24,000 nucleotides of DNA from Sphaerothrix gracilis Ecp01 (GTDB lineage: Bacteria; Cyanobacteriota; Cyanobacteriia; Phormidesmidales; Phormidesmidaceae), in assembly GCF_030405905.1 (NCBI RefSeq), contig NZ_JASATW010000040.1:5008-29007 (forward strand), given 5' to 3'. Shown here piece after piece: positions 4,079 to 20,427 of this stretch. Within the stretch, counting starts at the first letter, position 1. The number at the start of each line of letters is the position of its first letter. A program made the translations under genes and the position numbers. The notes beneath the pieces were generated by a model. That model was not told the origin of the DNA, did no database searches, and saw only the letters and a list, made by a program, of their open reading frames with translations.

Positions 4079-4885
4079 ATGGCTGCTACTGAGAACCTGA
4101 CGCTACATCGCTACACGTGCAGCAATACAGGGTATGTCGAGAAACTGGGGGACGGGGTAACGCTGACTCTCATGCAGATACCTGCTGGGGAGTTTTTGAT
4201 GGGCAGTGCTTCAGATGACCGGAACGGTCAAGATAATGAGCGTCCACAGCATCGGGTGAAGGTGCCGCGATTTTTCATGGGGCGAACTTCGGTGACTCAG
4301 GCTCAGTGGCGGGTGGTAGCAGGCTATGAAAGGGTAGATATTGACCTCGACCTCGCCCCCTCAGGCTTCAAGGGAGATGACTTGCCGGTGGAGCGAGTTA
4401 GTTGGTATGAGGCAACGGAGTTTTGCAAGCGGCTATCGAAGGAATTGAGTCGGCGACACTCGCCTCAAAGCCAGCCACAGTATCGTTTACCCTCAGAAGC
4501 TGAGTGGGAATATGCTTGCCGGGCAGCAACAACGACGACTTATCATTTTGGCGATCAGATCGCAGAAAATTTAGCGAATTACGATGGAGGCCTAGAAAGT
4601 AAGGTTGCCAGCTATCCAGCCAATCTCTGGGGATTGTATGACATGCATGGCAATGTCTGGGAGTGGTGCGAAGACGACTATCACGGTAGCTATGACAAGG
4701 CTCCTACCGATGGCAGCGCCTGGATAGCCGATAAAAATACTGAGTATAAAATACGTCGTGGCGGCTCCTGGCGCTACGACCCGAGGAACTGTCGCTCCGC
4801 GTTCCGCAACGACGGTACCCCGGCCTACCGCAACTACGACATCGGTTTTCGGGTTTGTTGTTCGGCCCCCAGGATTCTTCAGTAG
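4079..4885 (+). CDS. FGE-sulfatase / SUMF1-like (C-type-lectin-fold) domain protein, DGR target 1.
   Basis: Hallmark motifs present: [72 protein letters not shown]. The C-terminal 125 bp is homologous to the TR. Confidence 0.9.
   Translation: MAATENLTLHRYTCSNTGYVEKLGDGVTLTLMQIPAGEFLMGSASDDRNGQDNERPQHRVKVPRFFMGRTSVTQAQWRVVAGYERVDIDLDLAPSGFKGDDLPVERVSWYEATEFCKRLSKELSRRHSPQSQPQYRLPSEAEWEYACRAATTTTYHFGDQIAENLANYDGGLESKVASYPANLWGLYDMHGNVWEWCEDDYHGSYDKAPTDGSAWIADKNTEYKIRRGGSWRYDPRNCRSAFRNDGTPAYRNYDIGFRVCCSAPRILQ
4757..4880 (+). repeat. DGR variable repeat VR1.
   Basis: Aligns codon-for-codon with the TR at 14878-15002. Most differences fall at TR adenines (AAC to CGC, TAC, GAC, ACC). It has about 4 non-adenine differences by hand count, more than the other VRs. 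Confidence 0.75.
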
Positions 4886-4924
4886 CTCTTTATACTCTTG
4901 CCCTTTTGCTCTCTGCAGAAAAAA
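4881..4924 (+). promoter_or_regulatory. Conserved post-VR element, copy 1 (candidate DGR target-recognition flank).
   Basis: AGTAGCTCTTTATACTCTTGCCCTTTTGCTCTCTGCAGAAAA. Near-identical copies follow all four VRs, but nothing similar follows the TR. Confidence 0.5.
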
Positions 4925-5104
4925 TTTGCGTTCTTTTTCATTCGCCGTTAGGCGATCGCACTTTGCTATCAAATTCGGTGCTAGTCGTCTTTAGTGCCAA
5001 AAACTTGGTTAAAGTAGGGCATAAAGCCGGAAACTAGGCTAAATAGCTTGAAGAGCATAGAAGCTGTAGAAGCTGGTAGAGTACAGACTGCCTAGGGTGA
5101 GGTA

Positions 5105-6606: not shown

Positions 6607-7812
6607 ATGACCTGGAAATACAAGTACTTTCAAGGAAACTGCCATAGTGCTCAGCCTTCTGGCATGAAGCAGCCCCCTGAAGCTCCCCCCTGGCGGCGAT
6701 TTTTGCCGCGAGAAGAATTTCTTACGCAGCAACAGGCCCAGAAGCAGGCTGACGAGCAGGAACAGACCAAAGATGAAATCTACTGGACAAAGCTTCAGAA
6801 TCTCGCCGACGAAGATACACGGGCTATTCAACGGGGCAAGAGCTTTCGCATTTCTACTGGTAAAGAAGGAATGGCGGTGATTGATGCAGTCAATGCTGCG
6901 ATTCATCTACGGCGACCGCTGTTAGTAACGGGTGCCCCCGGCTCTGGTAAAACCTCACTGGCCTACGCGATCGCCTATGAGCTTCAACTGGGTCCCGTCC
7001 TCACTTGGCCCATTACTGCTCGCTCTAATTTGGTCGATGCTGAATATCGCTATGACGCTATTGCCCGTCTGCAGGACGCTCAGCTCGACAAAACCCGTAA
7101 TTTGATTGACTTAGCTGTTTTACTAGGTGTCGATGTTTCCCGTTTGCAAGAGGCCCAACTTGACAAAACTCGTCAAGGGGCAGCAACTCCGGAGGAAGGC
7201 GACTTGGGCGACTATATTCAGCTTGGCCCAGTGGGGACGGCCTTTTTGCCCTCCCTGCGGCCTCGGGTGTTGCTGATTGACGAAATTGATAAAAGTGACC
7301 TGAACCTACCCAATGACTTGCTCAACCTGTTTGAAGAAGGAGAATTTGAAATTCCAGAGCTGGTGCGTCGTAAGCGGCGTGGGCAAGATACCGACGATCC
7401 CAACGCCACCGTCACGGTACGCACTGCCGATAAAGAGATGGAGGCTCCCGTTACGAATGGTCGGGTGAAGTGCTGCGAATTTCCCATTGTGATCATGACC
7501 AGCAACGGTGAGCGCGACTTTCCCCCTGCTTTCTATCGTCGCTGTTTGCGGGTGCAGATGCCCAGCCCCGACGAAGACTCACTGAAACCGATTGTGCAGT
7601 CTCACTTTGAAGAGAGCGATCGCTGGGATGAGGTAGAGTCGCTTATCCGCAAATTCGTGAGTAAGGATAAGGGCAAAACCTCAGATCGGGCGACCGACCA
7701 GTTGCTCAATGCCGTTTATCTGATGGGGCGTCACCCAGACAGCCTGAGCGCGGATGAAAAAACTCGGCTCCGGGAGTTGTTGTTTCAGTCGTTGGGTGGC
7801 ACCGACGCATGA
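6607..7812 (+). CDS. MoxR-like AAA+ ATPase.
   Basis: Walker A is LLVTGAPGSGKTSLAYA and Walker B is RVLLIDEIDKSD. MTSNGERDFPPAFYRRC looks like the sensor/arginine-finger region. Its stop overlaps the next gene's start in an ATGA at 7809-7812. An internal Met start is possible. Confidence 0.85.
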   Translation: MTWKYKYFQGNCHSAQPSGMKQPPEAPPWRRFLPREEFLTQQQAQKQADEQEQTKDEIYWTKLQNLADEDTRAIQRGKSFRISTGKEGMAVIDAVNAAIHLRRPLLVTGAPGSGKTSLAYAIAYELQLGPVLTWPITARSNLVDAEYRYDAIARLQDAQLDKTRNLIDLAVLLGVDVSRLQEAQLDKTRQGAATPEEGDLGDYIQLGPVGTAFLPSLRPRVLLIDEIDKSDLNLPNDLLNLFEEGEFEIPELVRRKRRGQDTDDPNATVTVRTADKEMEAPVTNGRVKCCEFPIVIMTSNGERDFPPAFYRRCLRVQMPSPDEDSLKPIVQSHFEESDRWDEVESLIRKFVSKDKGKTSDRATDQLLNAVYLMGRHPDSLSADEKTRLRELLFQSLGGTDA

Positions 7813-10592
7813 CACAGTCTGGGGCCACGGGAGCATCGCCAGATCTGGTGAATGCGTTTCTCCAGCGGCTGGCTAAGGCGCAGGAACTTACGGGTATTGA
7901 AACCACGACCCAAATGGCGGAGCTGCTGTGGTTGGCGACTCATCTGGAATCAGATTTCCCATCACCCGAGTCTCCGGGTGATCAATCGGAGGATATAGAT
8001 GTCTCGCAAGACGATGAGGGCAGTCGCAGACTGACGCCCTCTACGGGGCGATCGCCATCTACTTCCTCTCCAGAGCACCCTTCTTCTAAACGAATAGACA
8101 TCGTAGCACCTACGCCACAGAAGGCATTGCCTCCCGAAGTGCTACCGGTGCAGATTGTTGACCCCGCAATGCTCTCTGACCCTCTAGCCATCATTAGGGC
8201 TCTCAAACCGCTCCTGCAGAAAATCGACGCCGGTACTGGCAGCCGTCTCGACGAATCTGCCACAGTTGATTTCATTGCTCGCACCCAGCTCTGTGTGCCA
8301 AAGCTGCAGCCTGATCAAGAGACGTGGTTTGACATCATTTTGGTGGTCGATCGCAGTAGCGCGTCGATGGTGATTTGGCAGCGCTTGGTACAAGATATTG
8401 TGCGCGCGCTCCGTCGGTACGGAGCCTTCCGCGATGTCCGGGTGTTTGATTTGGTGATCTATCCCGAAGCGCAACCAGCAGATCAGGTCATGCTGCGGTC
8501 TCATCCTCAGCGCCCAGATCACCATCCCAAAGAACTTATTGACCAGACAGGCCGTCGTCTTGCCATTGTCCTCAGCGACAGCACGGGTGCTCACTGGTGG
8601 CAGGGCATCCTAACGCCTACGCTAGAAACCTGGGGCCACCACATGCCTGTAGTTCTGTGGCAGATGCTGCCTCCTTGGATGTGGCAGCGCACTGCCCTAG
8701 GGCGAGGTATTCCTGTTTCCCTCAGAAATGATCTACCAGGAGGCACTAACCAGCGGTTAAAAAAAAGAGCCCCTGCGCAAAATACTCCGGCTAGTCTTCA
8801 GCAACGCATAGCCCTTCCGGTGGTGACTGGTGAAGAGCGTGACCTCAGCCGCTGGAGTCAGTTAGTAGCAGGCAAGCCGGGAGTGACTCCCGGCTTTTTG
8901 CTGCCGCCACCAGGGGGCACCGTGCCCCGCTCATCATCAGTGGAAACGCTCGCAGATGTTGAACTGGCTGAACGTCGAGTCGAGCGCTTTTTGCGGCTTT
9001 CTTCTCCCGATGCTCAGTGGCTGCTGATGCTGCTAGCGGCTGCCCCAGTGATTACCCTGCCCATCGTCCGGCTGATTCGAGAGGAGAAGCTTCCAGATGT
9101 GCGATCGCCCCTACCCATTGCCGAGGTCTTCACCGGTGGTTTATTGCAGCGTCTTCCTGGTCAAGAAGAGCGGGCACTGGAATCTACTTCGACTAAACCA
9201 GAGCAGTCGGATGAGCTGATAGAACCGCAAGACTTGGTGCAGTATGACTTTGCTGGCCGGGTGCGGGGGGTTTTGCTGAGTGGCAAGTGGCTACCGCCAG
9301 TAGACGCTGTCGATGTCATCAATAGTGTGTCTCGGGCGATCACCCGACGATTTAACCGCCTCTATCCTTATACCTTCCAGGCTTATCTTAAAGACCCTAA
9401 TATAGAACTACCGGAAGGTTTGGAGGGCGCGAAAACTTTCGCCACCATCACGGCTGATATTTTGGCTTCACTAGGACGACCCTATGAAGACCTAGTTCAA
9501 CAACTCAGAAGGGGAGCAGCGAAAGTTCCTGTCCCGGTTACAGAGCTCGATCCCTATGGTCGCCGTCTCCAAACCTTTGAATATGAAGTCGCTGAATACC
9601 TGAATCTTCCACCCCTTGAATCATTCGAGTTTGTTGATGCGCAACTTATAGATGACGACTTTCCACCATCTCTTGATACTGAAGACTTCACCATCATTAC
9701 CTTAGAACCGCAAACATCATCGAGGCCGGTACTGCAACCCTTTGAATTTGTGCTTGCCAAGCTCATACCTAGTCAGGATACGAATGAGTGGGTGATTGAG
9801 CGTCAGCAACGGCAAGCCAATCGCTTTACTGAACCCCTAGCAAATGACATTTACTTAAAGATGGTGGCAATTCCTGGTGGTACCTTCCTGATGGGTTCCC
9901 CAGAGAGTGAACCTGGACATTACGATCGCGAATCTCCTCAGCATGAAGTCGCTGTCCAGCCTTTCTTTATGAGCCGTTACCCAGTGACTCAGGTCCAATG
10001 GCGAGCTGTGGCAGCGCTACCCCAGGTAGAACGAGAGCTAAACTTAAACCCTTCAGGATTCAACGGCGAAAACCGCCCCGTAGAGCAAGTCTCTTGGGAT
10101 GACGCGGTTGAGTTCTGCGATCGCCTCTCAGCTCACACTGGACGTCAATACCGCCTGCCGACTGAAGCGGAATGGGAATACGCCTGTCGGGCTGGCACAA
10201 CGACACCATTCCATTTTAGCGACATGATTACCACGGAAGTAGCTAATTACAATGGCAGCGCTTATGCAGACGGGCCGAAAGGTGAGAGCCGAGGCGAAAC
10301 CACGCCGGTAGATCACTTCGAAATCGCTAACGCTTTTGGCCTAAGCGACATGCACGGTAACGTTTGGGAGTGGTGTCAGGATGACTGGCACAACACCTAT
10401 GAGGGAGCTCCCATAGATGGCAGCGCCTGGGTAACTGGCGGAAATACTGAGTATAAAATCAGACGTGGCGGTTCCTGGTTCGACAACCCGAGGCACTGCC
10501 GCTCCGCGTACCGCATCAGGCTCAACCCGGACAACCGCGACGTCAACGTCGGTTTTCGGGTCTGTTGTTCGGCCCCCAGGTCTCTTCAGTAG
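7809..10592 (+). CDS. vWA component of the vWA-MoxR system (SAV_2336 N-terminal-domain family) fused to a C-terminal FGE-sulfatase domain, DGR target 2.
   Basis: The N-terminus (LVNAFLQRLAKAQELT...MAELLWLATHL), a low-complexity S/P linker, then WFDIILVVDRSSASMVIWQRLVQDIVRALRRYGAFRDVRVFDL match the SAV_2336-type vWA proteins as I remember them. The C-terminal ~250 aa (from about 9840) carries IPGGTFLMGSP, PQHEVAVQPFFMSRYPVTQVQW, LPTEAEWEYACRAG, MHGNVWEWCQD, RGGSW and [10 protein letters not shown]. Confidence 0.85.
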   Translation: MTQSGATGASPDLVNAFLQRLAKAQELTGIETTTQMAELLWLATHLESDFPSPESPGDQSEDIDVSQDDEGSRRLTPSTGRSPSTSSPEHPSSKRIDIVAPTPQKALPPEVLPVQIVDPAMLSDPLAIIRALKPLLQKIDAGTGSRLDESATVDFIARTQLCVPKLQPDQETWFDIILVVDRSSASMVIWQRLVQDIVRALRRYGAFRDVRVFDLVIYPEAQPADQVMLRSHPQRPDHHPKELIDQTGRRLAIVLSDSTGAHWWQGILTPTLETWGHHMPVVLWQMLPPWMWQRTALGRGIPVSLRNDLPGGTNQRLKKRAPAQNTPASLQQRIALPVVTGEERDLSRWSQLVAGKPGVTPGFLLPPPGGTVPRSSSVETLADVELAERRVERFLRLSSPDAQWLLMLLAAAPVITLPIVRLIREEKLPDVRSPLPIAEVFTGGLLQRLPGQEERALESTSTKPEQSDELIEPQDLVQYDFAGRVRGVLLSGKWLPPVDAVDVINSVSRAITRRFNRLYPYTFQAYLKDPNIELPEGLEGAKTFATITADILASLGRPYEDLVQQLRRGAAKVPVPVTELDPYGRRLQTFEYEVAEYLNLPPLESFEFVDAQLIDDDFPPSLDTEDFTIITLEPQTSSRPVLQPFEFVLAKLIPSQDTNEWVIERQQRQANRFTEPLANDIYLKMVAIPGGTFLMGSPESEPGHYDRESPQHEVAVQPFFMSRYPVTQVQWRAVAALPQVERELNLNPSGFNGENRPVEQVSWDDAVEFCDRLSAHTGRQYRLPTEAEWEYACRAGTTTPFHFSDMITTEVANYNGSAYADGPKGESRGETTPVDHFEIANAFGLSDMHGNVWEWCQDDWHNTYEGAPIDGSAWVTGGNTEYKIRRGGSWFDNPRHCRSAYRIRLNPDNRDVNVGFRVCCSAPRSLQ
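10463..10587 (+). repeat. DGR variable repeat VR2.
   Basis: By hand alignment to the TR, 11 substitutions fall at TR adenines (AAC to TTC, GAC, CAC, ATC, CTC, GTC; ATC to GTC). Only 1 substitution falls elsewhere in the mutable core (TGT to TGC). Confidence 0.9.
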
Positions 10593-10631
10593 CCCTTTAT
10601 ACTCTTGCCCTTTTGCTCTCTGCGTAGAAAA
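10588..10631 (+). promoter_or_regulatory. Conserved post-VR element, copy 2.
   Basis: AGTAGCCCTTTATACTCTTGCCCTTTTGCTCTCTGCGTAGAAAA, ending directly at the likely ATG (10632) of the next FGS gene. Confidence 0.5.
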
Positions 10632-11477
10632 ATGCCAGCCCAACCCTCTCAGCTTATCGTCAACAAACGTCGGGGACAGAACCAATACTACGAGGAGTTT
10701 CTAGCCGAAGGCGTTCTGCCGTTGCGCATGATGCTGATTCCTGCCGGTCGCTTTCTCATGGGTTCGCCTGAGAGTGAACTAGAGCGAACTGAGGCTGAAG
10801 GCCCGCAGCATGAAGTCGCCGTGCCGCAGTTTTTCATGGCTAAGTATCCTGTGACCCAGGCCCAGTGGCGGGTTGTGGCAGCGCTGCCGGAGGTAAATCA
10901 AGGACTAAACTCCGATCCCTCTAAGTTTAAGGGAAATGACCGCCGTCCCGCCGAGCAGGTGTCTTGGCAGGATGCGGTCGAGTTTTGCGACAGGCTCACT
11001 ATTCACACCAACCGCCAATACCGCCTGCCGACCGAAGCTGAGTGGGAATACGCCTGCCGTGCTGGAACGACAACCCCCTTTCACTTCGGTGAGACGCTTT
11101 CTACTGACTACGCCAACTATCGAGGAAATGATGAGAAATACGGAGCTTATGGCCCAGGGAGCCGAGGCGAGTATCGCAAACAAACCACTCCAGTAGATCA
11201 TTTTGAAGGGGCGAATGCCTACGGCCTCTGCGATATGCACGGCAATGTTTGGGAATGGTGTCAAGATGACTGGCACGAAAACTATGAGCAGGCTCCTACG
11301 GATGGCAGTGCCTGGGTAACCGGCGGAAATGCTGAGTATAAAATTATACGTGGCGGTTCCTGGAGCGATGTCCCGAGGTACTGCCGCTCCGCGTTCCGCT
11401 TCAGGGACTTCCCGGACTTCCGCGACTCCGACATCGGTTTTCGGGTTTGTTGTTCGGCCCCCAGGATTCTTCAGTAG
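10632..11477 (+). CDS. FGE-sulfatase domain protein, DGR target 3.
   Basis: The track ORF starts at 10605. I prefer the ATG at 10632 (MPAQPSQLIV...) because 10605-10631 lies inside the conserved post-VR element. Motifs present: [73 protein letters not shown]. Confidence 0.88.
   Translation: MPAQPSQLIVNKRRGQNQYYEEFLAEGVLPLRMMLIPAGRFLMGSPESELERTEAEGPQHEVAVPQFFMAKYPVTQAQWRVVAALPEVNQGLNSDPSKFKGNDRRPAEQVSWQDAVEFCDRLTIHTNRQYRLPTEAEWEYACRAGTTTPFHFGETLSTDYANYRGNDEKYGAYGPGSRGEYRKQTTPVDHFEGANAYGLCDMHGNVWEWCQDDWHENYEQAPTDGSAWVTGGNAEYKIIRGGSWSDVPRYCRSAFRFRDFPDFRDSDIGFRVCCSAPRILQ
11348..11472 (+). repeat. DGR variable repeat VR3.
   Basis: By hand alignment to the TR, about 18 substitutions fall at TR adenines and 2 fall elsewhere. 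Confidence 0.9.
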
Positions 11478-11520
11478 CCCTTTATACTCTTGCCCTTTTA
11501 CGCTCTGCAGAGAAATAAGC
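11473..11520 (+). promoter_or_regulatory. Conserved post-VR element, copy 3.
   Basis: AGTAGCCCTTTATACTCTTGCCCTTTTACGCTCTGCAGAGAAATAAGC. It contains the 10-bp palindrome CTCTGCAGAG. Confidence 0.5.
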
Positions 11521-11548: not shown

Positions 11549-11737
11549 TTAGTCGTCTGATGTGGGTGTTCCGTGGCGGCTGCTATCGGATTCTGAGTTG
11601 CTGACGCCTAAGTCCGTTGTCTCATCTGCGGCTGATTCCAGATGGTTTTCTTTTCGCGTAAACACATAGTGCTCAAAGATTTTGCGCCTCAGCCGATGGG
11701 TGTCGCCGTGCATCAGGTGGGCTTCCCAGCTCTGTAA
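11549..11737 (-). pseudogene. Displaced 3' fragment of the DGR reverse transcriptase gene: the authentic C-terminal 60 codons plus stop, cut off by the IS insertion.
   Basis: The minus strand from 11731 down to 11549 reads SWEAHLMHGDTHRLRRKIFEHYVFTRKENHLESAADETTDLGVSNSESDSSRHGTPTSDD*. If the IS and one CTGTAA copy are removed, this is in frame with ...LQPLVQRLQ of the RT. SW.(A/G)H..HGDT..LR is the usual DGR RT C-terminal motif. Confidence 0.8.
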
Positions 11738-13454
11738 CCAACATTCCGCAGGTTGCCAAAAGATTAGGTAGGTGCATAGTAGGGCTCAACATGAGCCCCC
11801 AAGAATCGGATGATTGTGCGCCGCTCATCAGTCAGGTTACTAATCTGCTTGAGGTGTCCGAACTGCACAAAATGAATGCCCTGAAACTTCTGAATGACCC
11901 ACCGAAAGGTAGGGTTGACAGTAGGCTGTTTTTTCTGGTCGAGGATTGTTTGCTGTTGTGCCGCCAGGGTTTGTCTAAGCTTACGTTCAGCTAAGGTGTA
12001 GACCATCAAAGTCAGGGCCATGACCAGGGCTAGAGCCTCGACTCTTTGGGCTTTTTTGACAAACAGGCTGCTGGCGAAGAACAACGGGTCTTTGAGAAAG
12101 CGAAACCCGCGCTCAGTCTTCTGTTGGCCCTTGTACTCTTGCAATAGCTTGTCAGCAGGCCACTGCTGGGTATCGAGGTGATTGGTGGCCAGGATAAACC
12201 GACTGCGCTGGTTCTGGTAGGCAGTGCTCCGGCGCTCAAGCTTGGCTTTGAGGCGGTAGCCGGTGGCAGGTGGTGTGTCTTTAGCTTTTGCTTTAGTTCG
12301 CTGACCCGGTGCCCGTTTCGGTCGAAGCGTCTCAACGCTGACCTCAGTGAGGTGATGGACCGCCAAGGTGTCTTGGAAGCGCATCAGGGCTTCGAGGGCA
12401 TCGGGCTTACAGGCAAAGACCTGTTGCTGCAGCTGCTTGAGGTTGCGGTGCAATCGTTTCTCTAGCTGCTTGAGTTCGGGCTCCCACAGCGACTGGTCAG
12501 CCTTGCGCGTCAGACTCTCAATCAGAATCCAGCGCTGCTGAACTCCACCATACTCAGCGGTTGTCTCCCACATCCGGTAGTCCTTGAGGGTGCAAGCAAC
12601 TGGCGTCAGTTCGCTGGTATCACTTTGCACGAGCGCTTGGGCATCGCTCAAGGTTTGGGGTACCCGTGAGACCCATTTGAGTGAGCCGACCTGCTGTAAG
12701 TTCGGCTCGCTGTAAAAGGCTGCGTCGATAACGAACACACTGTCCATCTGCCAACTGTTGGCAAACTGGCGCATCAACCCGGCAAACTGCTGCGCGTCAC
12801 TCTGGTTGCCATCTGCAACCTTCAGCCACAGCGGCACGCCCCCATCCGCGCTACACATTAGATTCACCACAAACTGCTTCAGGTCGGGTCGTTGGTCTCT
12901 TGAATAGCCTCGACAGATCTCGATAGGCACCTGATCTAAGTCTCCCGACTCAACCCTCTCCCGCCCATACTCGCCTTGCAACGAAAACGAACTCGAGTCT
13001 AGATGAACCTGGCCAACATCGACGCCAAATCGCTCCACCGCCTGCATCGCCACACGCAAAAAGAAACTGCTGGTGCCCTCTTCATATAACTCGTCGAGCA
13101 CACGTCCGAGACGGTCATCGTTCAGGTAACTCGCTTGTATGCCTTCGCCGAGCAAATGCTCAACCGGCTTACTCTCAAAGAACTCGCTGAACAGGTACAG
13201 AGGCGCGCTCACAAAACCCAAGCCGTTCAGTATCAGTGCTTTGACCACTTGCCCCGCGCTGATGTGCTCCAGCTGATGCTGGCCTAATTGTGCGTTGGTC
13301 AGTTCCACCAGTCCTACCTCGTCAACCATCCCGGCAACCAAGCCTAGGTGATCCAGATTCTCTATCTTCAATCGATGCATCCATTCTCTTGAGGGCTGCT
13401 TCTACTCTACGGCACACCACCTTTCTTATTCATTGTCAACCTGCGGAATGTAGG
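11738..13454 (-). mobile_element. IS1634-family (IS4 superfamily) insertion sequence, apparently complete at 1717 bp.
   Basis: The terminal inverted repeats are CCAACATTCCGCAGGTTG (11738-11755) and the reverse complement of CAACCTGCGGAATGTAGG (13437-13454), matching at 17 of 18 positions. They are flanked by the direct repeat CTGTAA at 11732-11737 and 13455-13460. One long transposase ORF lies inside. Confidence 0.85.
11764..13380 (-). CDS. IS1634-family DDE transposase.
   Basis: 538-aa ORF. The N-terminus IENLDHLGLVAGMVDEVGLVE...ISAGQVVKALILNGLGF is the DUF4277-type start typical of IS1634/IS4 transposases. A DDE-type core follows (VFVIDAAFYS...). Confidence 0.85.
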   Translation of the reverse strand: MHRLKIENLDHLGLVAGMVDEVGLVELTNAQLGQHQLEHISAGQVVKALILNGLGFVSAPLYLFSEFFESKPVEHLLGEGIQASYLNDDRLGRVLDELYEEGTSSFFLRVAMQAVERFGVDVGQVHLDSSSFSLQGEYGRERVESGDLDQVPIEICRGYSRDQRPDLKQFVVNLMCSADGGVPLWLKVADGNQSDAQQFAGLMRQFANSWQMDSVFVIDAAFYSEPNLQQVGSLKWVSRVPQTLSDAQALVQSDTSELTPVACTLKDYRMWETTAEYGGVQQRWILIESLTRKADQSLWEPELKQLEKRLHRNLKQLQQQVFACKPDALEALMRFQDTLAVHHLTEVSVETLRPKRAPGQRTKAKAKDTPPATGYRLKAKLERRSTAYQNQRSRFILATNHLDTQQWPADKLLQEYKGQQKTERGFRFLKDPLFFASSLFVKKAQRVEALALVMALTLMVYTLAERKLRQTLAAQQQTILDQKKQPTVNPTFRWVIQKFQGIHFVQFGHLKQISNLTDERRTIIRFLGAHVEPYYAPT

Positions 13455-14483
13455 CTGTAACCGCTGCACCAGGGGCTGAAGAGTGATTTTGCCGGTTTCG
13501 TAGTCTTGCTGGAGCTGCTTCATCCGTCGCCGTGCCCGTCTGAGATTGTCATTGCGCACCCGAATCCGATCCGGTAAGACACGGAAGCCGACAAAGCTAG
13601 CCCCATGATGGGTTTCAAAGAGCTGACTCTTAATCGGATGCATTTTCAGCCGTAACGTGACCAGGAAATCTTCCATTGCCCGTTTGGCCGCTGCCAACTC
13701 CTGCCAGTCATTTGAAAAGGCGGCATAGTCATCGACGTACCTGAGATAGTAGCGCAGCTTAAGCTGTCGCTTCACAAAGTGATCAAAGGGGCTGAGATAG
13801 AGATTGGCGAAAAACTGGCTGGTCAAATTTCCGATAGGCAAGCCCTTGCGGCGTTGAACTGGCGTCAGTAAGTCATCTCCCGGAAAGTATTCAATCACCG
13901 GCTCCTGCTCATTGCTGGCGTCGATAATCGTATCAATCAGCCATAGCGTATTGGGACACCTAATTTTCTCTCGGATCAAGGTCTTGAGGATTTTGTGATC
14001 GATTGAGGGAAAATACTTCTGGATGTCCCCCTGCAGGCAGTAGCGCTGACTGCGAGCAAATTGGGTGAATCGTTTCAGAGCCCGATGTGTGCCGTAGCCG
14101 CTGCGGTTGGCATAGGTATCGACAATCAGCGTCTGCTCCAGCAGCGGCGTGATCACATTACACAACGCATGATGCACCACCCGGTCCCGATAAGGCGCTG
14201 CTGAAATCAAACGCGGCTTGGGATCTCGAATCTTGAACGTGCGGTATGCCCCAGGGCGATAGGTGTGGTCTTCCAGCTCCTGCTGCAGGGCCGGAAGTTC
14301 CCGTTCCAGAGCATAGTTAAACGCCAGAACATTGTCCCGAAAGCGTTTTCCCTTTTGTGCCTGCCGTGAGGCCAGCAGCAGATTTTCAAAGTCAAGGATG
14401 TCTGGCCAGAGATTACCGTGACGTTTCATGGGACTTCTGACTCTGCTATTTGATCCAGCCGCCGAGATCGGTACCGATAGCAT
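13407..14483 (-). CDS. DGR reverse transcriptase, 3' end interrupted by the IS. The last 15 codons plus stop (13407-13454) are IS-derived, and the likely true start is the ATG at 14429.
   Basis: RT motifs present: [51 protein letters not shown] (the DGR-type I/LGxxxSQ motif) and [11 protein letters not shown] (YxDD). It lies downstream of an Avd gene and close to the TR. The start [20 protein letters not shown] at 14429 avoids overlap with avd. Confidence 0.9.
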
Positions 14484-14772
14484 TGATGAGCTGCCCTACA
14501 TACTGGTATCGCTTATGAGATAACAAATCAAAATCCAGCAGCAGCCGGGTTTGATAGCGCAGGACATCTAATTTGCTGTTGATGACCTGGAGCTGAGGCA
14601 GTTTATCGCGCTGATAGCGAGCCATAATCAAGCTTTCCAACAATCCATAAAGGCCCATCACCATGCGATCGCCTAGCTGGAATCTATGGTCTCGGGGCAA
14701 TCGATTGAGAATCGGCACGTACCATTTAATCAAGTCGTAGGTTTTCTGAATAATCGGTAGCTCAGTTGCCAT
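14446..14772 (-). CDS. avd: DGR accessory variability determinant (Avd; four-helix-bundle, 23S rRNA intervening-sequence-protein-like).
   Basis: The track ORF is 183 aa (14446-14997), but its first 75 codons run antisense through the TR. Starting at Met76 (ATG at 14772-14770) gives 108 aa: [53 protein letters not shown]... This is the usual Avd size and pattern, directly upstream of the RT. Confidence 0.8.
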
Positions 14773-14877: not shown

Positions 14878-15002
14878 ACGTGGCGGTTCCTGGAACAACA
14901 ACCCGAGGAACTGTCGCTCCGCGTACCGCAACAGGAACAACCCGGACAACCGCAACAACAACATCGGTTTTCGGGTCTGTTGCTCGGCCCCCAGCACTCT
15001 TC
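14878..15002 (+). repeat. DGR template repeat (TR).
   Basis: This 125-bp intergenic copy of the VR sequence has 11 AAC codons where the VRs carry mixed codons: ...TGG AAC AAC AAC CCG AGG AAC TGT CGC TCC GCG TAC CGC AAC AGG AAC AAC CCG GAC AAC CGC AAC AAC AAC ATC GGT... Its 3' end (TGC TCG GCC CCC AGC ACT CTT C) differs from the VR 3' ends (TGT TCG GCC CCC AGG ...), as expected for IMH* versus IMH (IMH = initiation of mutagenic homing site). Confidence 0.9.
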
Positions 15003-15172
15003 TATCGCCAGCAATGGCCGGTCAGAACTGGCAGGTGGGAATCTGTCGGGCGTACCCCAGAAGAGTCCAGACCTACTCCGGCGATATCCATCGAGGTATC
15101 CAAAAATCAAACCGGGCCAGCTATTTTGGTAGGGCAACCGAAGACCTAGCTGGCCCTCTCACCTTACCGCCA

Positions 15173-15985
15173 ATGTCTCTCACCATCCGCCGCACCCCCC
15201 GCCAATGCCGAGGCTACCCGGAACCCCTTTTAGAGATTACCGATGCCCTACCCCTGCACATGGTGCTCATCCCTAGCGGCACCTTCACGATGGGCTCCCC
15301 CGACGATGAACCCGATCGCAAAGATAATGAAGGGCCGCAACGAGAGGTCACCGTGCCGACGTTCTTTCTAGGCCGCTACCCGGTCACCCAAGCTCAATAC
15401 GAAAAGGTTATGGAGACGAATCCAGCCACTCGGTACGAGGCAGACCGACTTGTTGCCCCTAACAAGCCTATTGTCGGTGTGAGCTGGCAGGATGCGGTCG
15501 AGTTTTGCGATCGCCTGGCTCAGCTCACGAGCCGTCCCTACCGCCTGCCCTCAGAAGCGGAATGGGAGTACGCTTGCAGAGCGGGCACAACCACCCCCTT
15601 CTACTTCGGCAGAACCCTGACCGACGAACTCGCCAATTACCGAGCCTCGGCAACCTATGCAGAGGGTCCAGCGGGGCAATTTCGTAACGAAACGACGCCA
15701 GTAGACCATTTCGATGTCGCCAATGCCTTTGGTCTGTCTGATATGCACGGCAATGTCTATGAGTGGTGTCAGGACAACTGGCACGCCACCTATGAGGGGG
15801 CTCCTACTGATGGCAATGCTTGGTTAATCGGTGGAGATAAAAGGTATAAAATTATACGTGGCGGTTCCTGGGACGACAGCCCGGGGTACTGCCGCTCCGC
15901 GTTCCGCAACGTGGGCAACCCGGTCAACCGCTACATCAGCATCGGTTTTCGGGTTTGTTGTTCGGCCCCCAGGACTCTTCAGTAG
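15173..15985 (+). CDS. FGE-sulfatase domain protein, DGR target 4.
   Basis: The track ORF starts at 15014. I prefer the in-frame ATG at 15173 (MSLTIRRTPRQ...), which gives 270 aa like its paralogs. Motifs present: [73 protein letters not shown]. Confidence 0.88.
   Translation: MSLTIRRTPRQCRGYPEPLLEITDALPLHMVLIPSGTFTMGSPDDEPDRKDNEGPQREVTVPTFFLGRYPVTQAQYEKVMETNPATRYEADRLVAPNKPIVGVSWQDAVEFCDRLAQLTSRPYRLPSEAEWEYACRAGTTTPFYFGRTLTDELANYRASATYAEGPAGQFRNETTPVDHFDVANAFGLSDMHGNVYEWCQDNWHATYEGAPTDGNAWLIGGDKRYKIIRGGSWDDSPGYCRSAFRNVGNPVNRYISIGFRVCCSAPRTLQ
15856..15980 (+). repeat. DGR variable repeat VR4.
   Basis: By hand alignment to the TR, about 14 substitutions fall at TR adenines and 2 fall elsewhere. 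Confidence 0.9.
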
Positions 15986-16030
15986 CCCTTTATACTCTTG
16001 CCCTTTTGCTCTTTACAGAGAAAAATAAGC
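15981..16030 (+). promoter_or_regulatory. Conserved post-VR element, copy 4.
   Basis: AGTAGCCCTTTATACTCTTGCCCTTTTGCTCTTTACAGAGAAAAATAAGC. CTCT-TTAC-AGAG can form a short stem-loop where copy 3 has CTCT-GC-AGAG. Confidence 0.5.
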
Positions 16031-16403: not shown

Positions 16404-17207
16404 TCAAGCTCGGGCTGAAGGATTGGCTTCAGTTGAGCGAGTGGCTGCGGCGCGTTTGCGATAGCTATCGGTATGGATTTCGACAATCAAGGCATGATGC
16501 ACGAGACGATCTACCGCCGCGACCGTCATCATGTCGTCGGCAAAAATGGTGTCCCATTGACTGAAAGGCTGATTGGCCGTGATTAAAAGACTGCGCCGTT
16601 CATAGCGATGGGCAATGAGCTCAAAGAGGACCAAGGTTTCGGCTTCTGACTTTTTGACGTAGCCAAGGTCATCAATGACTAGCAGATCAAAACGGTCCAG
16701 CTTGTGGAGCAAAGCGGGCAATTGCAACTGCAACTGCAACTTAGCCTGCTGCAATTGCTGTACCAATGCCGTCGCAGTGAAGAATTTAGCCCGTTTGCCG
16801 AGTTCGACAATAGAGCGCGCCAAGGCTGCCGCCAAATGAGTTTTGCCGACACCGGAAGGCCCGAAGATTAAACAGTTTTCGGCGCGCTCTAGCCAGCCGG
16901 TATCCGTGGCCAGTTGCATCAGCGGCAGCGGATTGAGCTTTGGGACATGGTTCTAGTCAAAGTTGGAAACCGTTTTGGCGGCGGGGAGTTGGGCCTCTTG
17001 CAGGGCGCGTTTGAGGCGCACACTCCAGCGTCGGTCCACCTCCAATTCGCAGAGTGCCAGTCAGAATTGAGCGTAAGACCACTGTTCTTGCATGGCCTGG
17101 TGTTCGAGGGTTTCCCAGTGCTGGAGCATGTGAGAGAGGCGGGCAGGCCAGTAGGTTGCTTGAAAATAAACTCGTCCCGGACTTTGAGGTGTAATCGTGC
17201 GTTTCAC
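16404..17207 (-). pseudogene. istB: IS21-family istB (AAA+ helper ATPase) pseudogene with two in-frame stop codons.
   Basis: The intact 171-aa ORF (16404-16919) contains WLERAENCLIFGPSGVGKTHLA (Walker A) and FDLLVIDDLGY (Walker B). Reading the same frame upstream gives VKRTITPQSPGRVYFQATYWPARLSHMLQHWETLEHQAMQEQWSYAQF*LALCELEVDRRWSVRLKRALQEAQLPAAKTVSNFD*NHVPKLNPLPLMQLATDTGW. The stops are a TGA at 17063-17061 and a TAG at 16955-16953. A GTG start at 17207 would give a normal ~267-aa IstB. Confidence 0.8.
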
Positions 17208-17338
17208 AGTGCCCTGCCGACGGAAATGTCTTCGGCGTTGAGGTGGGAAGATCGGTCGATAAGTACATAGAGGTATTTCTCATGGACGGTTTGCAGGTGT
17301 AGGGAAAATGCTTGGTCGTGATTGAACTGGATGAGTCG
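17204..17338 (-). pseudogene. Possible C-terminal fragment of IS21-family istA; the rest of the gene is missing.
   Basis: The minus-strand frame reads ...QFNHDQAFSLHLQTVHEKYLYVLIDRSSHLNAEDISVGRAL*, with its TGA overlapping the putative istB GTG (GTGA), the usual istA/istB junction. Only ~45 codons remain before the neighbouring gene's stop at 17339. The assignment is by position only. Confidence 0.35.
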
Positions 17339-17725
17339 CTAAAGATTCAGCAAGGCGTTGCCGTGTACAAACATCTGCGGGTCTTCCGAGACGACCATCC
17401 ATTGGTTGCAGCCCATGTCCCAAACCTCGCCTCTGACCATGACTTTGGTACCAACGGTTAAGTCTGTGATGATTTCACTTTCAAAGCCATAACCTGCTCG
17501 CAGGGGTGTAGTTGTGATAGTGACGGCAGCGTGATACTGATGAGGTGCCAAGGGCACCAACTCTCCGATGCGGAAGCCGTCTGCCCAGGTAACATCGGGA
17601 CAAATCTCGGTGATGAGAGGAGGTAAAGCTTGAGCGATATCAGTCGTATCTAAGGAAACGGATGTCATTTCAACAGGCAGTAACGTAAGGCAGGCGGCAA
17701 GACCGATGTGAGTTGCTTTCAGCAT
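17339..17725 (-). CDS. Hypothetical small protein with a hydrophobic signal-like N-terminus.
   Basis: 128-aa ORF starting MLKATHIGLAACLTLLPVEMTS. I recognise no family. Confidence 0.4.
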   Translation of the reverse strand: MLKATHIGLAACLTLLPVEMTSVSLDTTDIAQALPPLITEICPDVTWADGFRIGELVPLAPHQYHAAVTITTTPLRAGYGFESEIITDLTVGTKVMVRGEVWDMGCNQWMVVSEDPQMFVHGNALLNL

Positions 17726-17975: not shown

Positions 17976-20360
17976 ATGAGCAATCGTCAACGCGGTGTTG
18001 TCTTAACCGAGCACGGTCAGAAACGATTAGAAGCAGCGATCTCATCTGCCCAGGACGAAGTAAAATTCGGCAAGCGATTTACTCAAGAAGAAATTTCAGA
18101 ACGAGCTCGACTTAGCATAAAAACAATCAAGAAAATTCGCAGTTGCAGAGACCGAGTTGACAAGGCTTCGCTCTGTGATTTGTTTAAGGCTTTTGGTCTG
18201 GAATTAATTGCCTCAGACTTTGGTCAGCCAGAGGAATCAATAACGACTTCAGATACTGAGTTAACATGCGCAAAGCTTTCTTCTATTCTCATTGATATAA
18301 CAAGTAAGAATATTGATACTAAACTTGAAGCATCTATAAAAGAGACAATCGATCTAGTTCAAGACAACATTCAAAGCAAAGAAGCAGAATCTTTACTCGG
18401 CGTCTCTAATAAGTTTTATGATAGCATTCGAAACCATTGTCGAGAAAAGATCTTATACCTTTACAGTGAAATAAAATTACTCAATCACTACAAAATACGT
18501 GTCGAGAATATTTATGTCGACACCTATGTATTGGAAGGCATAGAATCAGGCTTATTTGCAACTGTTCCAGACTTAGTAAAGACAGAAACATCTATCAGTT
18601 CTTTTGAACGTATAGGTTTGGGTCTTCGAAAAAAAAGAATATCTGGGCTTGATGCAGTCAAGAAATTTCCTAGACTAATGGTTCTAGGAAAACCTGGAGT
18701 GGGCAAAAGTACTTATCTTAGATTTCTTGCAGTTGCATGTAGTCAAGAAAAAATATTCAAGGAAAAGATTCCCATATTAATCGAACTGAGAAGTCTGGAA
18801 AATCCCAATTCACTAAATATCAACGAAATAATTTGCAGAGAGACAGGTTTAAAAAATGTTCAAGATATTGAGAATGCATTCAGCGAAGGAAAATTTTTCA
18901 TCTTGTTAGATGGCTTAGACGAACTTTCGCAAAGCCAAAGAGAACATGTTCAAAGAGAATTAGATTTCTTTATCCAAATTTACTACAAGAACCGTTTTGT
19001 TATTACTTGTAGAACTCAAACAACTGAGTTTTTGATGGACAAGTTTGTTTATGTCGAAATAGCTAGTTTCAATTCTACCCAGATTTGTGAATTTTCTAAG
19101 AACTGGTTTGTCTCTCAATTTGGAAGTAAGGGAGATCAATTGCATGATTCATTTATCAATAAACTAAATCTTCCAAAAAATAAGCGGAATGCAGAACTAG
19201 CCACTACACCAATTCTGCTAAGCCTTATTTGCTGGATCTACTCTGATACAGGGAAATTACCTGAAAAAAAGCACAAGTTATATGAAAAAGGTCTCGACCT
19301 GCTTTTAGAGAAGTGGGATGAAGCTAGAGGGATTCATAGAGAGGTTAATAACGAAGCTTATAAACCGCTCAGTAAAGAAGATAAGCAAAATCTTTTTAGT
19401 TGTATTGCATTTGAAAAGTTCAGCAAAAAACAGCGAATACTTTTTGAGCTAGAAGAACTTTGCGAGCAAATAGCCAATCTGCTTAGAATCAAGGCTGATG
19501 AAGCACAATCAGTTTTGAAAGAAATCGAGTTTCAGCATGGAATAATTATTGAACGAGCACAGGATATATATTCTTTTTCTCACCTCACTTTTCAAGAATA
19601 CTTTGTCGCAAGGAAAATTTCAAAGTCTGATTTCTCAGAAAACTTTCGAGTTGTCCAGAAGAATTTTGGAGATCATGAATGGCGCGAGGTTTTTGTTCTT
19701 CTATTCGGCATTTTGAAAAAACCTGATGAAGCATTCATTTTGATTAAGAGAAGTATTGAAGCGCCAATCTTAGGTAATCCTAAGCTGCGAACATTCATTT
19801 ATTCTATAAAGCAGAAACCTTACTATCTAAGGAGCCAGAAGAAATCAGGTGCATTGAGAGTTGCATATTTGCAATTTGTACTTGAGTTGTTGCCATATTT
19901 AGAGGTTATTTATGACCATGGCTTCACCTTAAATCAGTCGTTCGCTAACGAGACTGACAAGCCTTTCAGCTTAGACTATGGCTTGTTGAATTGCTGTCAG
20001 TTGGTTCTTAGTAGAATTAAGGTAAATCAATTTACCCAAGGTCATTATTCTAGTCAGCTTGAATATAGCTTCTTTAACTCTTTTGAGCTTCTTAGAAAAA
20101 AACTTCCTGACCTAGGAAGTGCTTTTTTGAAGTGGTGGCCTGAGTTTGGGAGTGGTTGGCTTCAGGAGCTAAGAGATTTTATGAACGAATACCTGGAAAT
20201 AGATCAGTATTGGAATTTTTCACAGAGAGAGAAAGATATGATTTCACAATTTAGCTATTCTAGCGAACTTCTGTTGATATGTATCAATTTGTCGGATTTT
20301 GTCAGCCTTGAAATAAAAAGGGCGATTGAAAATGCTTTGCTAGATATTGACTTGAATTAA
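17976..20360 (+). CDS. NACHT-type STAND NTPase with an N-terminal XRE-like HTH domain.
   Basis: Walker A is MVLGKPGVGKSTYL and Walker B is FFILLDGLDEL. The FVITCRTQ and ELATTPILLSLIC motifs are typical of NACHT. The N-terminal ~85 aa (FTQEEISERARLSIKTIKKIRS) is HTH-like and homologous to the N-terminus of the next gene. The gene is markedly AT-rich and I saw no HIP1 sites in it. Confidence 0.85.
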   Translation: MSNRQRGVVLTEHGQKRLEAAISSAQDEVKFGKRFTQEEISERARLSIKTIKKIRSCRDRVDKASLCDLFKAFGLELIASDFGQPEESITTSDTELTCAKLSSILIDITSKNIDTKLEASIKETIDLVQDNIQSKEAESLLGVSNKFYDSIRNHCREKILYLYSEIKLLNHYKIRVENIYVDTYVLEGIESGLFATVPDLVKTETSISSFERIGLGLRKKRISGLDAVKKFPRLMVLGKPGVGKSTYLRFLAVACSQEKIFKEKIPILIELRSLENPNSLNINEIICRETGLKNVQDIENAFSEGKFFILLDGLDELSQSQREHVQRELDFFIQIYYKNRFVITCRTQTTEFLMDKFVYVEIASFNSTQICEFSKNWFVSQFGSKGDQLHDSFINKLNLPKNKRNAELATTPILLSLICWIYSDTGKLPEKKHKLYEKGLDLLLEKWDEARGIHREVNNEAYKPLSKEDKQNLFSCIAFEKFSKKQRILFELEELCEQIANLLRIKADEAQSVLKEIEFQHGIIIERAQDIYSFSHLTFQEYFVARKISKSDFSENFRVVQKNFGDHEWREVFVLLFGILKKPDEAFILIKRSIEAPILGNPKLRTFIYSIKQKPYYLRSQKKSGALRVAYLQFVLELLPYLEVIYDHGFTLNQSFANETDKPFSLDYGLLNCCQLVLSRIKVNQFTQGHYSSQLEYSFFNSFELLRKKLPDLGSAFLKWWPEFGSGWLQELRDFMNEYLEIDQYWNFSQREKDMISQFSYSSELLLICINLSDFVSLEIKRAIENALLDIDLN

Positions 20361-20427
20361 TTGCTATTGAGTGAGTCTAATTCTATTTGAATCGAATTAC
20401 TCATTATTATTAATTTTGTTTGAAGCT

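Follow-up and report, generated by a model that had tools for sequence, protein, structure and literature searches.

An IS1634-family insertion sequence splits the reverse transcriptase gene of a DGR in Sphaerothrix gracilis Ecp01

Introduction

The window analyzed here (the whole stretch of 24,000 nucleotides) derives from the filamentous cyanobacterium Sphaerothrix gracilis Ecp01 and contains a diversity-generating retroelement (DGR), a targeted hypermutation system, whose reverse transcriptase (RT) gene is interrupted by an insertion sequence (IS). The locus raises the question whether the original C-terminus of the RT can be recovered and, if so, whether the loss of this part is likely to have switched off the diversification of the four VRs.

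Results and Discussion

The RT gene as it stands and as restored

The RT gene is distributed over the following parts of the minus strand:

13455..14429 (-): retained 5' portion of the DGR RT gene, encoding residues 1-325, with the NTE, the fingers, the palm with YVDD, the IGNLTSQ motif and the first 1.5 thumb helices (Pfam RVT_1)
13407..13454 (-): 15 IS-encoded codons and the stop codon that now close the RT ORF, aligning to nothing in homologues
11549..11731 (-): 3' remnant cut off from the RT gene, consisting of 60 codons and a stop codon, starting with SWEAHLMHGDTHRLRRKIFEHYVF and ending in a variable, disordered tail

The present product consists of 325 authentic residues (...LQPLVQRLQ) followed by 15 IS-encoded residues, resulting in a total length of 340 aa. 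Most of the protein, including the catalytic palm, is retained. In this interrupted form the RT is 100% identical to the NCBI protein P0001 of Sphaerothrix gracilis, the only match at this level, which is annotated as an ordinary RNA-directed DNA polymerase of 340 aa.

The in-silico excision of positions 11738-13460 (1723 bp) joined ...VQRLQ in frame to SWEAHLMHGDTHRLRRKIFEHYVF...SDD* and restored an RT of 385 aa when the ATG at 14429 is taken as the start. After removal of the IS and one copy of CTGTAA, the empty site reads GTGCAGCGGTTACAGAGCTGGGAAGCC. The claim of an earlier note on this DNA, that the RT is split by an IS and that its C-terminus is recoverable, was borne out by this excision, since the in-frame ORF of 385 aa matches the intact homologues. 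For the public database this implies a correction of the annotation: the RNA-directed DNA polymerase of 340 aa represents an IS-split gene with a true product of 385 aa. The full-length, uninterrupted RT gene of a DGR is lacking here, the gene being split after residue 325 of 385, and the locus is a DGR by descent with a disrupted RT.

The assignment of the RT to the DGR type, also made in the earlier note, was upheld. The motif IGNLTSQ aligns to IGSLTSQ of the Bordetella bRT (motif 4, [I/L/V]GxxxSQ), and bRT (8ub7) was the top match in sequence (E value 9.9e-52, the value of a group II RT being 1.8e-17) as well as in fold (TM 0.83). In addition, avd as well as the template repeat (TR) and the VRs adjoin the gene.

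Structure and ends of the insertion sequence

The inserted element and its boundaries were determined as follows:

11738..13454 (-): complete IS1634-family insertion sequence of 1717 bp, with the transposase on the same strand as the RT; ends set by the inverted repeats and the target duplication
11764..13380 (-): transposase ORF of 538 aa, open and uninterrupted (NF033559, Pfam DUF4277 and DDE_Tnp_1)
11738..11755 (no strand): terminal inverted repeat CCAACATTCCGCAGGTTG, distal to the transposase start, matching the opposite end at 17 of 18 positions; the same end is found in the related copies L001, L002 and L003
13437..13454 (no strand): terminal inverted repeat proximal to the transposase start, with CCTACATTCCGCAGGTTG as its reverse complement
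11732..11737 (no strand): target-site duplication, copy 1, CTGTAA; its minus strand encodes Leu324-Gln325 of the RT
13455..13460 (no strand): target-site duplication, copy 2, CTGTAA, identical to copy 1

The inverted repeats CCAACATTCCGCAGGTTG and CCTACATTCCGCAGGTTG match at 17 of 18 positions, and at 20 of 22 when extended. With the ends fixed, two 6-mers are expected to match by chance in 1 of 4096 cases. The transposase scored 355.2 bits against the NCBIfam profile NF033559 (IS1634 family; cut-off 100 bits), with residues 5-529 covering profile positions 2-481 of 483. The characteristics of the family, namely a full-length profile match, terminal inverted repeats and a direct target duplication of 6 bp, were all found. 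Every coordinate and sequence given before for an IS1634-family element with 17/18 inverted repeats and a perfect 6-bp CTGTAA duplication agreed with this analysis. An element that is excised during development, as in heterocyst-forming cyanobacteria, was ruled out, because the element encodes a DDE transposase and has inverted repeats and a target duplication, and does not encode a site-specific recombinase.

Transposases of 536-538 aa with an identity of 78-84% were found in other marine cyanobacterial genomes. An identical copy of the IS was not detected in the scan for the transposase, which yielded only four relatives (78-84% identity) in a genome collection that evidently lacks the source genome. 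Exact-sequence look-ups of the transposase and of the truncated RT (P0001) gave no match. In the related copies L001, L002 and L003 from three cyanobacterial genomes, the homology stops at 11738 in all three cases; at the other end it stops at 13454-13456 in both copies that have this end. The two copies with both flanks carry 6-bp duplications of their own, CAGAAG and CTCTAA. These shared ends and independent duplications uphold the assignment of the inverted repeats and the target duplication in the earlier note.

The inverted repeat 21-mer CCTACATTCCGCAGGTTGACA was present in at least 120 metagenome contigs, mostly near contig ends (~100 nt), as expected for a repeated element. Of eight more distant metagenomic elements with the same inverted repeat core, only one was bounded at these positions by a perfect 6-bp duplication. 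The scarcity of duplications in these distant copies may stem from chimeric assembly of multicopy repeats. Preferential targeting of DGR RTs by this group of IS was rejected, as a relative of the RT was encoded in none of the 120 metagenome contigs with the inverted repeat.

IS-free loci in relatives

IS-free syntenic loci were found in relatives, and their DNA is colinear across the junction with the sequence repaired in silico. This colinearity with the IS-free orthologues was obtained by retaining exactly one copy of CTGTAA. The gene order in the relatives is target, avd-RT, a convergent FGE target of 283 aa, a large FGE target, AAA and VMAP-C. An IS-free allele of the same lineage was not found, the best intact homologue being 84% identical, and an exact 27-nt probe for the empty site gave 0 matches in metagenomes.

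Conservation of the severed C-terminus

The restored tail SWEAHLMHGDTHRLRRKIFEHYVF agrees with the C-terminus that is conserved among 65 intact homologues and in the Bordetella bRT. The intact homologues range between 353 and 387 aa in length, with 84% identity for the best one. The split proposed in the earlier note would be contradicted by intact DGR RTs that normally end near VQRLQ. The homologues do not end there: past VQRLQ, the motif SWEAHLxHGDTxRLRRKxFDxYxF was present in all 14 intact homologues of the printed alignment.

In the alignment of 66 sequences, the severed piece spans seven invariant columns (S326, W327, H330, L331, H333, T336 and L339) and six further columns that are nearly invariant. 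The remnant retains all 13 of these residues. Of its conserved 24 residues, 22 match the closest homologue, compared to an identity of 84% overall. The segment is homologous to the C-terminus of bRT, residues ~302-323 of 328 (SW..H....DTH.L).

In the AlphaFold model, the cut falls inside the thumb helix 317-331, and the helix 337-346, with a pLDDT of 73-85, is lost. The thumb of bRT holds the template:primer duplex as well as the 'Thumb Ring' RNA, an element that is needed for cDNA synthesis (bioRxiv 10.1101/2023.10.23.563531). Data on C-terminal truncations of bRT were not found in PMC12875486. The conserved thumb motif SWxxHLxHGDT is a candidate for an essential element.

The remaining components of the DGR

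Outside the RT gene, the following components were identified:

14446..14772 (-): avd accessory gene, 108 aa, apparently intact (Pfam bAvd PF22296, 72.5 bits), 85-88% identical to the Avd of the relatives L005 and L007
14878..15009 (+): TR on the strand opposite avd-RT, adenine-rich, with 29 A in the 117-nt core
4756..4887 (+): VR1, 3' end of the FGE-sulfatase target gene 4079-4885; mismatches to the TR: 14 at A, 6 at non-A
10463..10594 (+): VR2, 3' end of the 927-aa FGE-sulfatase target gene 7809-10592; mismatches to the TR: 11 at A, 2 at non-A
11348..11479 (+): VR3, 3' end of the FGE-sulfatase target gene 10605-11477, convergent with the RT remnant; mismatches to the TR: 17 at A, 4 at non-A
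15856..15987 (+): VR4, 3' end of the FGE-sulfatase target gene 15014-15985; mismatches to the TR: 13 at A, 4 at non-A

The presence of four VRs and one TR, as described previously for this stretch, was confirmed, and the inverted placement of the TR was also found in the relatives. For the 117-nt core, 55 of 71 mismatches between the one TR and the four VRs are located at the 29 A positions. In the compared repeats, this A-position bias is indicative of past DGR activity. Avd and the TR are intact, and the four FGE-sulfatase/CLec target ORFs are open. The locus resembles a conflict system, with CHAT, NACHT, WD40 and AAA/VMAP genes adjoining. A truncated IS21 IstB relic is located near the locus. 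The Rfam scan of the window gave no match.

Consequence for the diversification system

The present allele is best explained by transposition of an IS1634-family element into the DGR RT gene, close to its 3' end, with duplication of the 6-bp target CTGTAA. The insertion left an ORF of 325 authentic and 15 IS-encoded residues, and the last 60 codons are stranded 1.7 kb downstream. Among the residues encoded by them, ~24 are highly conserved and complete the thumb subdomain. Since this subdomain grips the template:primer duplex and the Thumb Ring RNA in the homologous bRT-Avd ribonucleoprotein, the truncated RT is most likely unable to make cDNA. Lacking cDNA, the mutagenic retrohoming from the TR to the four VRs would therefore be stopped in cells with the IS allele. 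Taken together, an RT split by the IS, most likely without cDNA synthesis, and a halt of VR retrohoming in these cells are considered highly probable. The loss of RT activity is likely, judging from the conservation of the severed part and the position of the cut in the modelled thumb, and from the same two observations we infer that the VRs are frozen. The perfect target duplication and the undecayed DGR parts argue for a fairly recent, although undated, insertion.

Diversification would continue if the truncated RT, composed of 325 residues and a basic IS-encoded tail of 15 aa, were still active enough to keep the DGR on. It retains the palm (YVDD), the fingers, the NTE and the first thumb helix, and its ORF, which bears an ordinary annotation at NCBI, would still be expressed in the context of the avd-RT operon. 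However, the segment lost from this protein includes 13 columns that are invariant (7) or nearly so (6) among the 66 homologues, and it is conserved as far as Bordetella bRT. Moreover, one thumb helix is broken and the next is deleted, and the thumb of bRT contacts the template:primer duplex and is ringed by the RNA needed for cDNA synthesis. Sufficient residual activity is regarded as quite unlikely. The VRs would also not be frozen if the RT in cis is dead and a second DGR RT elsewhere in the genome serves the TR and the VRs in trans. Several related DGR loci are present in Thiohalocapsa PB-PSB1, where the use of the machinery of another locus in trans is suspected (PMC10907252), and in Leptolyngbya sp. 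PCC 7375 two related RTs (P0032 and P0078) are located on one contig. A supply in trans seems rather unlikely here; among the best 120 matches, most of which are without names, the named ones include only one Sphaerothrix gracilis protein, which weighs weakly against it.

A different reading concerns the age of the insertion, which could be an old scar in a DGR that has long been dead. Each VR departs from the TR at 2-6 non-A positions (16 over all four), a synonymous TGT>TGC change is common to VR2-4 and absent from every TR, and the nearby IS21 IstB relic suggests an older history of IS traffic. On the other hand, a long-dead system is difficult to reconcile with a perfect target duplication, a full-length transposase and a 60-codon remnant that is open and keeps all 13 invariant or nearly invariant residues, with 22 of 24 conserved positions matching compared to 84% overall; avd and the TR are likewise undamaged, as is each of the four target ORFs. 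An old insertion is considered unlikely. It is highly improbable that the junctions arose during assembly, through a chimera caused by repeats that placed the IS inside the RT gene. This type of IS does break many metagenome assemblies, with the inverted repeat ~100 nt from the contig ends in most matches, but both junctions are located in one contig and are flanked by a perfect 6-bp duplication, which would not arise from chimeric assembly, and the removal of the IS restores an exactly colinear, in-frame and conserved gene.

The preferred reading is thus a genuine IS insertion with a most likely inactive RT. With everything else intact, such an RT-disrupted DGR offers a handy natural negative control for VR turnover in the DGRs of cyanobacterial conflict systems. 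It is unlikely that the hypermutation system is polymorphic for on and off states within the population, with the IS allele as one of them. If this were true, cells whose RT is free of the IS, or has lost it by precise excision, would go on varying the four immune-sensor VRs, and IS-bearing cells would hold a fixed, selected repertoire; IS traffic would then work in effect as a switch by which useful receptor variants are fixed.

Comparison with known systems

Elements of the IS1634 family are 1.5-2 kb long and generate target duplications of 5-6 bp. The element described here resembles them in its single DDE transposase ORF, its length of 1.7 kb, its terminal inverted repeats and its 6-bp target duplication.

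Two motifs are common to the RT and the bRT of the Bordetella phage BPP-1 (8ub7 series): IGxLTSQ and, at the C-terminus, SW..H....DTH.L, which is cut off here by the IS. The bRT differs in its size of 328 aa and in the absence of a long disordered tail, and the identity is 34%. In BPP-1 the TR is located on the same strand as avd and brt, whereas in S. gracilis it is found on the strand opposite avd-RT.

Vallota-Eastman et al. (2020, PMC7517822) described cyanobacterial DGRs by which FGE-sulfatase/CLec domains of regulatory and conflict proteins are diversified, and noted transposases in the vicinity of these DGRs as well as, in Anabaena sp. 90, a DGR that is degraded. The present locus is similar to those of the survey in having an RT, Avd, a TR and multiple CLec/FGE-sulfatase targets that adjoin CHAT, NACHT, WD40 and AAA/VMAP genes. 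In contrast, the survey covers transposases near DGRs and RT-only remnants, and no IS inside the RT of an otherwise complete DGR.

The closest precedent for the interruption itself was described by Doré et al. (PNAS 2024, PMC10907252): in DGR 3 of Thiohalocapsa sp. PB-PSB1 the RT is interrupted by a transposon, and the authors regard the diversifier as disrupted or degraded. By presenting a natural off state as notable, the earlier note overstated its novelty, since transposon-interrupted DGR RTs with coexisting intact alleles had already been described in that study. Gene disruption of this kind is ordinary, and the insertion adds an example without revealing a new phenomenon or mechanism. 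Both hosts are multicellular, and in both the DGR diversifies C-type-lectin-fold sensors of putative conflict systems and has a transposon-interrupted RT. The hosts differ, Thiohalocapsa being a purple sulfur bacterium and S. gracilis a filamentous cyanobacterium, as do the mobile elements. In Thiohalocapsa, long reads revealed the coexistence of intact and interrupted alleles, whereas the present case consists of one assembly in which no intact allele was found. The S. gracilis case differs from PB-PSB1 also in that it shows exactly where the element inserted, which target was duplicated and which structural element was lost.

Interruption of the RT gene and in silico excision

The DGR reverse transcriptase (RT) gene of Sphaerothrix gracilis Ecp01 is interrupted by an insertion sequence (IS), and all coordinates of the earlier note were found to be correct by direct reading and by script. 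Copies of the 6-bp target duplication CTGTAA were located by script at 11732-11737 and 13455-13460, with 1717 bp between them (11738-13454). The terminal inverted repeats of the IS, CCAACATTCCGCAGGTTG and CCTACATTCCGCAGGTTG, match at 17 of 18 positions and at 20 of 22 when extended. The IS has a single long open frame:

11764-13380 (-), transposase ORF, 538 aa

The RT frame (-) starts at the ATG at 14429 and comprises 325 residues ending ...LQPLVQRLQ. The 15 codons and the stop following ...VQRLQ in the present ORF (13407-13454) are IS-internal, as proposed. Excision of 11738-13460 joins ...VQRLQ in frame with SWEAHLMHGDTHRLRRKIFEHYVFTRKEN...SDD*, giving a product of 385 aa with its stop codon at 11549-11551. 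The mechanical RT ORF has 18 extra codons at the 5' end (14429-14483, -; ATG at 14483) and overlaps avd. Since all homologues and the NCBI protein begin with MKRHGNLW, encoded from the ATG at 14429, the latter is the real RT start.

Two of the closest intact RT homologues (P0004 and P0008, 82% identity) are encoded on contigs with the gene order of the window:

FGE target, divergent avd-RT, convergent 283-aa FGE target, ~950-1100-aa FGE target, AAA ATPase, VMAP-C

No IS was found in these two loci, and their RT genes have 357-380 codons. The nucleotide alignment of the repaired window with the IS-free loci shows no gap across the junction if exactly one CTGTAA is kept, which is the strongest evidence for a true target duplication. 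Two related IS-free contigs from different JGI samples (L007 and L008) carry identical RT (P0008) and Avd genes. Their target gene calls differ (338 vs 219 aa; 953 vs 780+224 aa), which points to DGR targets that, in an IS-free relative, vary at the population level or have disrupted frames.

The severed C-terminus

Among 5.8 billion proteins searched, thousands were close homologues of the RT. The only 100% match was a 340-aa NCBI protein of Sphaerothrix gracilis, which is a truncated form since only 84% of the restored query is covered. Its IS-encoded tail aligns to nothing in the homologues. All other top matches are 353-387 aa in length and cover 89-99% of the query. Past ...QRLQ, every intact homologue in the alignments reads on SWEAHLxHGDTxRLRRKxFDxYxF. 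Of the columns covered by the severed stretch in the alignment of 66 sequences, seven are invariant (S326, W327, H330, L331, H333, T336 and L339) and six nearly so, and the residues of all 13 are kept in the window remnant. The same motif is recognisable at the C-terminus of the Bordetella phage BPP-1 RT (bRT; LASWSGHAQWADTHNL, residues ~299-315 of 328). Full-length DGR RTs thus extend beyond VQRLQ, and the frame 11549-11731 is clearly homologous to RT C-termini, which bears out the proposed restoration of a canonical C-terminus.

IS family and related elements

The assignment of the 538-aa protein to the IS1634 family was verified with the NCBIfam equivalog model (355 bits, cut-off 100, approximately the whole profile covered). 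Pfam DUF4277 and DDE_Tnp_1 were also detected. In representative genomes, a scan detected relatives of the IS in three further cyanobacterial assemblies, and one fragment; their transposases are 78-84% identical to that of the window. Nucleotide homology to these copies ends at 11738 and, on the other side, at 13454-13456, the latter boundary resting on the remaining copies as L002 lacks the second IS end. This places the boundaries without recourse to the inverted repeats or the duplication. Both copies with available flanks have the same termini as the window IS and own perfect 6-bp duplications, CAGAAG (L001) and CTCTAA (L003).

A 21-nt IS terminus was found in at least 120 metagenome contigs, mostly ~100 nt from the contig end, where a repeat that is present in many copies and interrupts assemblies would be expected. 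The transposases on these contigs are 51-82% identical to that of the window. Of eight complete elements, only one showed the 6-bp duplication in perfect form at the boundaries concerned; its absence from the other seven is attributed to chimeras in which different copies contributed the flanks, but is a caveat. Two of the eight are short (386-405 bp) and MITE-like; they share the terminal inverted repeats of the IS and were apparently derived from this IS group as MITEs:

L017 402-806, short element on a metagenome contig
L083 1021-1406, short element on a metagenome contig

RT relatives were found on none of 120 IS-terminus contigs, so there is no sign of DGR-RT targeting by this IS group, and the insertion looks incidental.

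The DGR locus

The interrupted gene contains Pfam RVT_1. Its best solved-structure match by sequence was bRT (8ub7, E 9.9e-52), with a group II intron RT at only 1.8e-17, and the DGR-specific motif IGNLTSQ aligns with IGSLTSQ of bRT. The AlphaFold model of the restored RT (66 sequences, mean pLDDT 72) also had 8ub7 as first fold match (TM 0.83, normalised to bRT). The associated elements are:

14446-14772 (-), avd, bAvd family, directly upstream of the RT gene on the same strand
14878-15009 (+), template repeat (TR), 132 nt, adenine-rich

Four open genes of the FGE-sulfatase type (C-type-lectin fold) each have a variable repeat (VR) at the 3' end. In a 117-nt core that includes 29 adenines, 11-17 A positions and 2-6 non-A positions of each VR deviate from the TR (55 vs 16 in total). 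The locus is a genuine DGR, and all four of its targets were diversified in the past. The term 'immunity-like locus' is supported by Trypco2, CHAT, EAD1/VMAP-C, MoxR-like AAA, NACHT and WD40 domains in the surrounding genes.

Relative to avd/RT (13455-14772, -), the TR is encoded on the opposite strand, directly before target gene 4 (ATG 15014), so its transcription must diverge from that of the RT operon. The inverted arrangement recurs in both IS-free relatives (TR at L005 2296-2427 and L007 5335-5466) and is therefore a clade feature. The stretch equivalent in role to the 'spacer' RNA of bRT would share sequence with target 4 at its annotated 5' end; the FGE domain of this target begins only at residue 82. 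Directly after the stop codon of all four VRs, a conserved CCCTTTATACTCTTGCCCTTTTGCTCTCTGCAGA-like stretch of ~30-40 nt was found that is absent from the TR and may serve, downstream of the IMH, in target recognition or as a terminator:

4886-4925, 10593-10632, 11478-11517 and 15986-16025, conserved post-VR stretches

Further features of the window are:

16404-16919 (-), IS21-family IstB helper ATPase, N-terminally truncated (profile positions 80-231 of 232)
17976-20360, NACHT NTPase gene
20371-24000 (+), WD40 ORF directly downstream of the NACHT gene, still open at the window end (1209 aa up to there)

The IstB gene is what is left of a second mobile element and lies between the NACHT gene and target gene 4; the adjoining small ORFs (16957-17283 and 17339-17725) had no family match. 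The WD40 ORF contains at least 14 WD40 repeats, for which a 126-nt tandem array (repeats at 22141-23823; 11 copies, 61-83% identity) codes.

Age of the insertion

The perfect target duplication, the full-length transposase, the open and undecayed 60-codon remnant and the intact avd, TR and four targets argue for a fairly recent insertion. In the remnant, 22 of 24 conserved residues equal those of the closest homologue, at least as good as the rest of the protein. Weak counter-signals are the non-A differences between TR and VRs, most numerous in VR1 (6), and a synonymous TGT>TGC (Cys) common to VR2-4 (column 37 of alignment A5, TR 14914). TGT is found at this site in the TR, in VR1 and in the TRs of two relatives. 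As a non-adenine difference, the TGC would be erased by simple overwriting from the present TR.

Probable effect on RT function

Thumb helices are predicted by the model at residues 293-312, 317-331 and 337-346, with a helix of low confidence and a disordered tail after them. The cut after residue 325 would thus fall within the second thumb helix, with the third one lost. In the cryo-EM structures of bRT-Avd-RNA, the thumb contacts the template:primer duplex, is ringed by a 'Thumb Ring' RNA, mutation of which lowers cDNA synthesis, and takes different positions in the resting and the active state (bioRxiv 10.1101/2023.10.23.563531). No experimental bRT truncation data were found in PMC12875486. 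Given this role of the thumb, the position of the cut and how strongly the lost residues are conserved, loss of cDNA synthesis is the most probable outcome of the insertion.

Comparison with known DGRs

The observation of the earlier note is confirmed and its interpretation supported. The practical value lies in an annotation correction and a natural RT-disrupted genotype. The locus fits the class of DGR-diversified conflict systems known from multicellular bacteria, cyanobacteria included (PMC7517822, PMC10907252). In Thiohalocapsa PB-PSB1, which has DGR loci of the same functional class, the RT gene is interrupted by a transposon in DGR 3 and replaced by MITE-like repeat arrays in DGRs 4 and 5; intact and interrupted alleles coexist in long reads, and disruption is discussed among the causes of low VR diversity (Doré et al., PNAS 2024, PMC10907252). 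Transposases around cyanobacterial DGRs and one degraded DGR were also described (Vallota-Eastman et al., PMC7517822). Given these preceding reports, the case presented here adds a new example, cleanly resolved, to a phenomenon already known.
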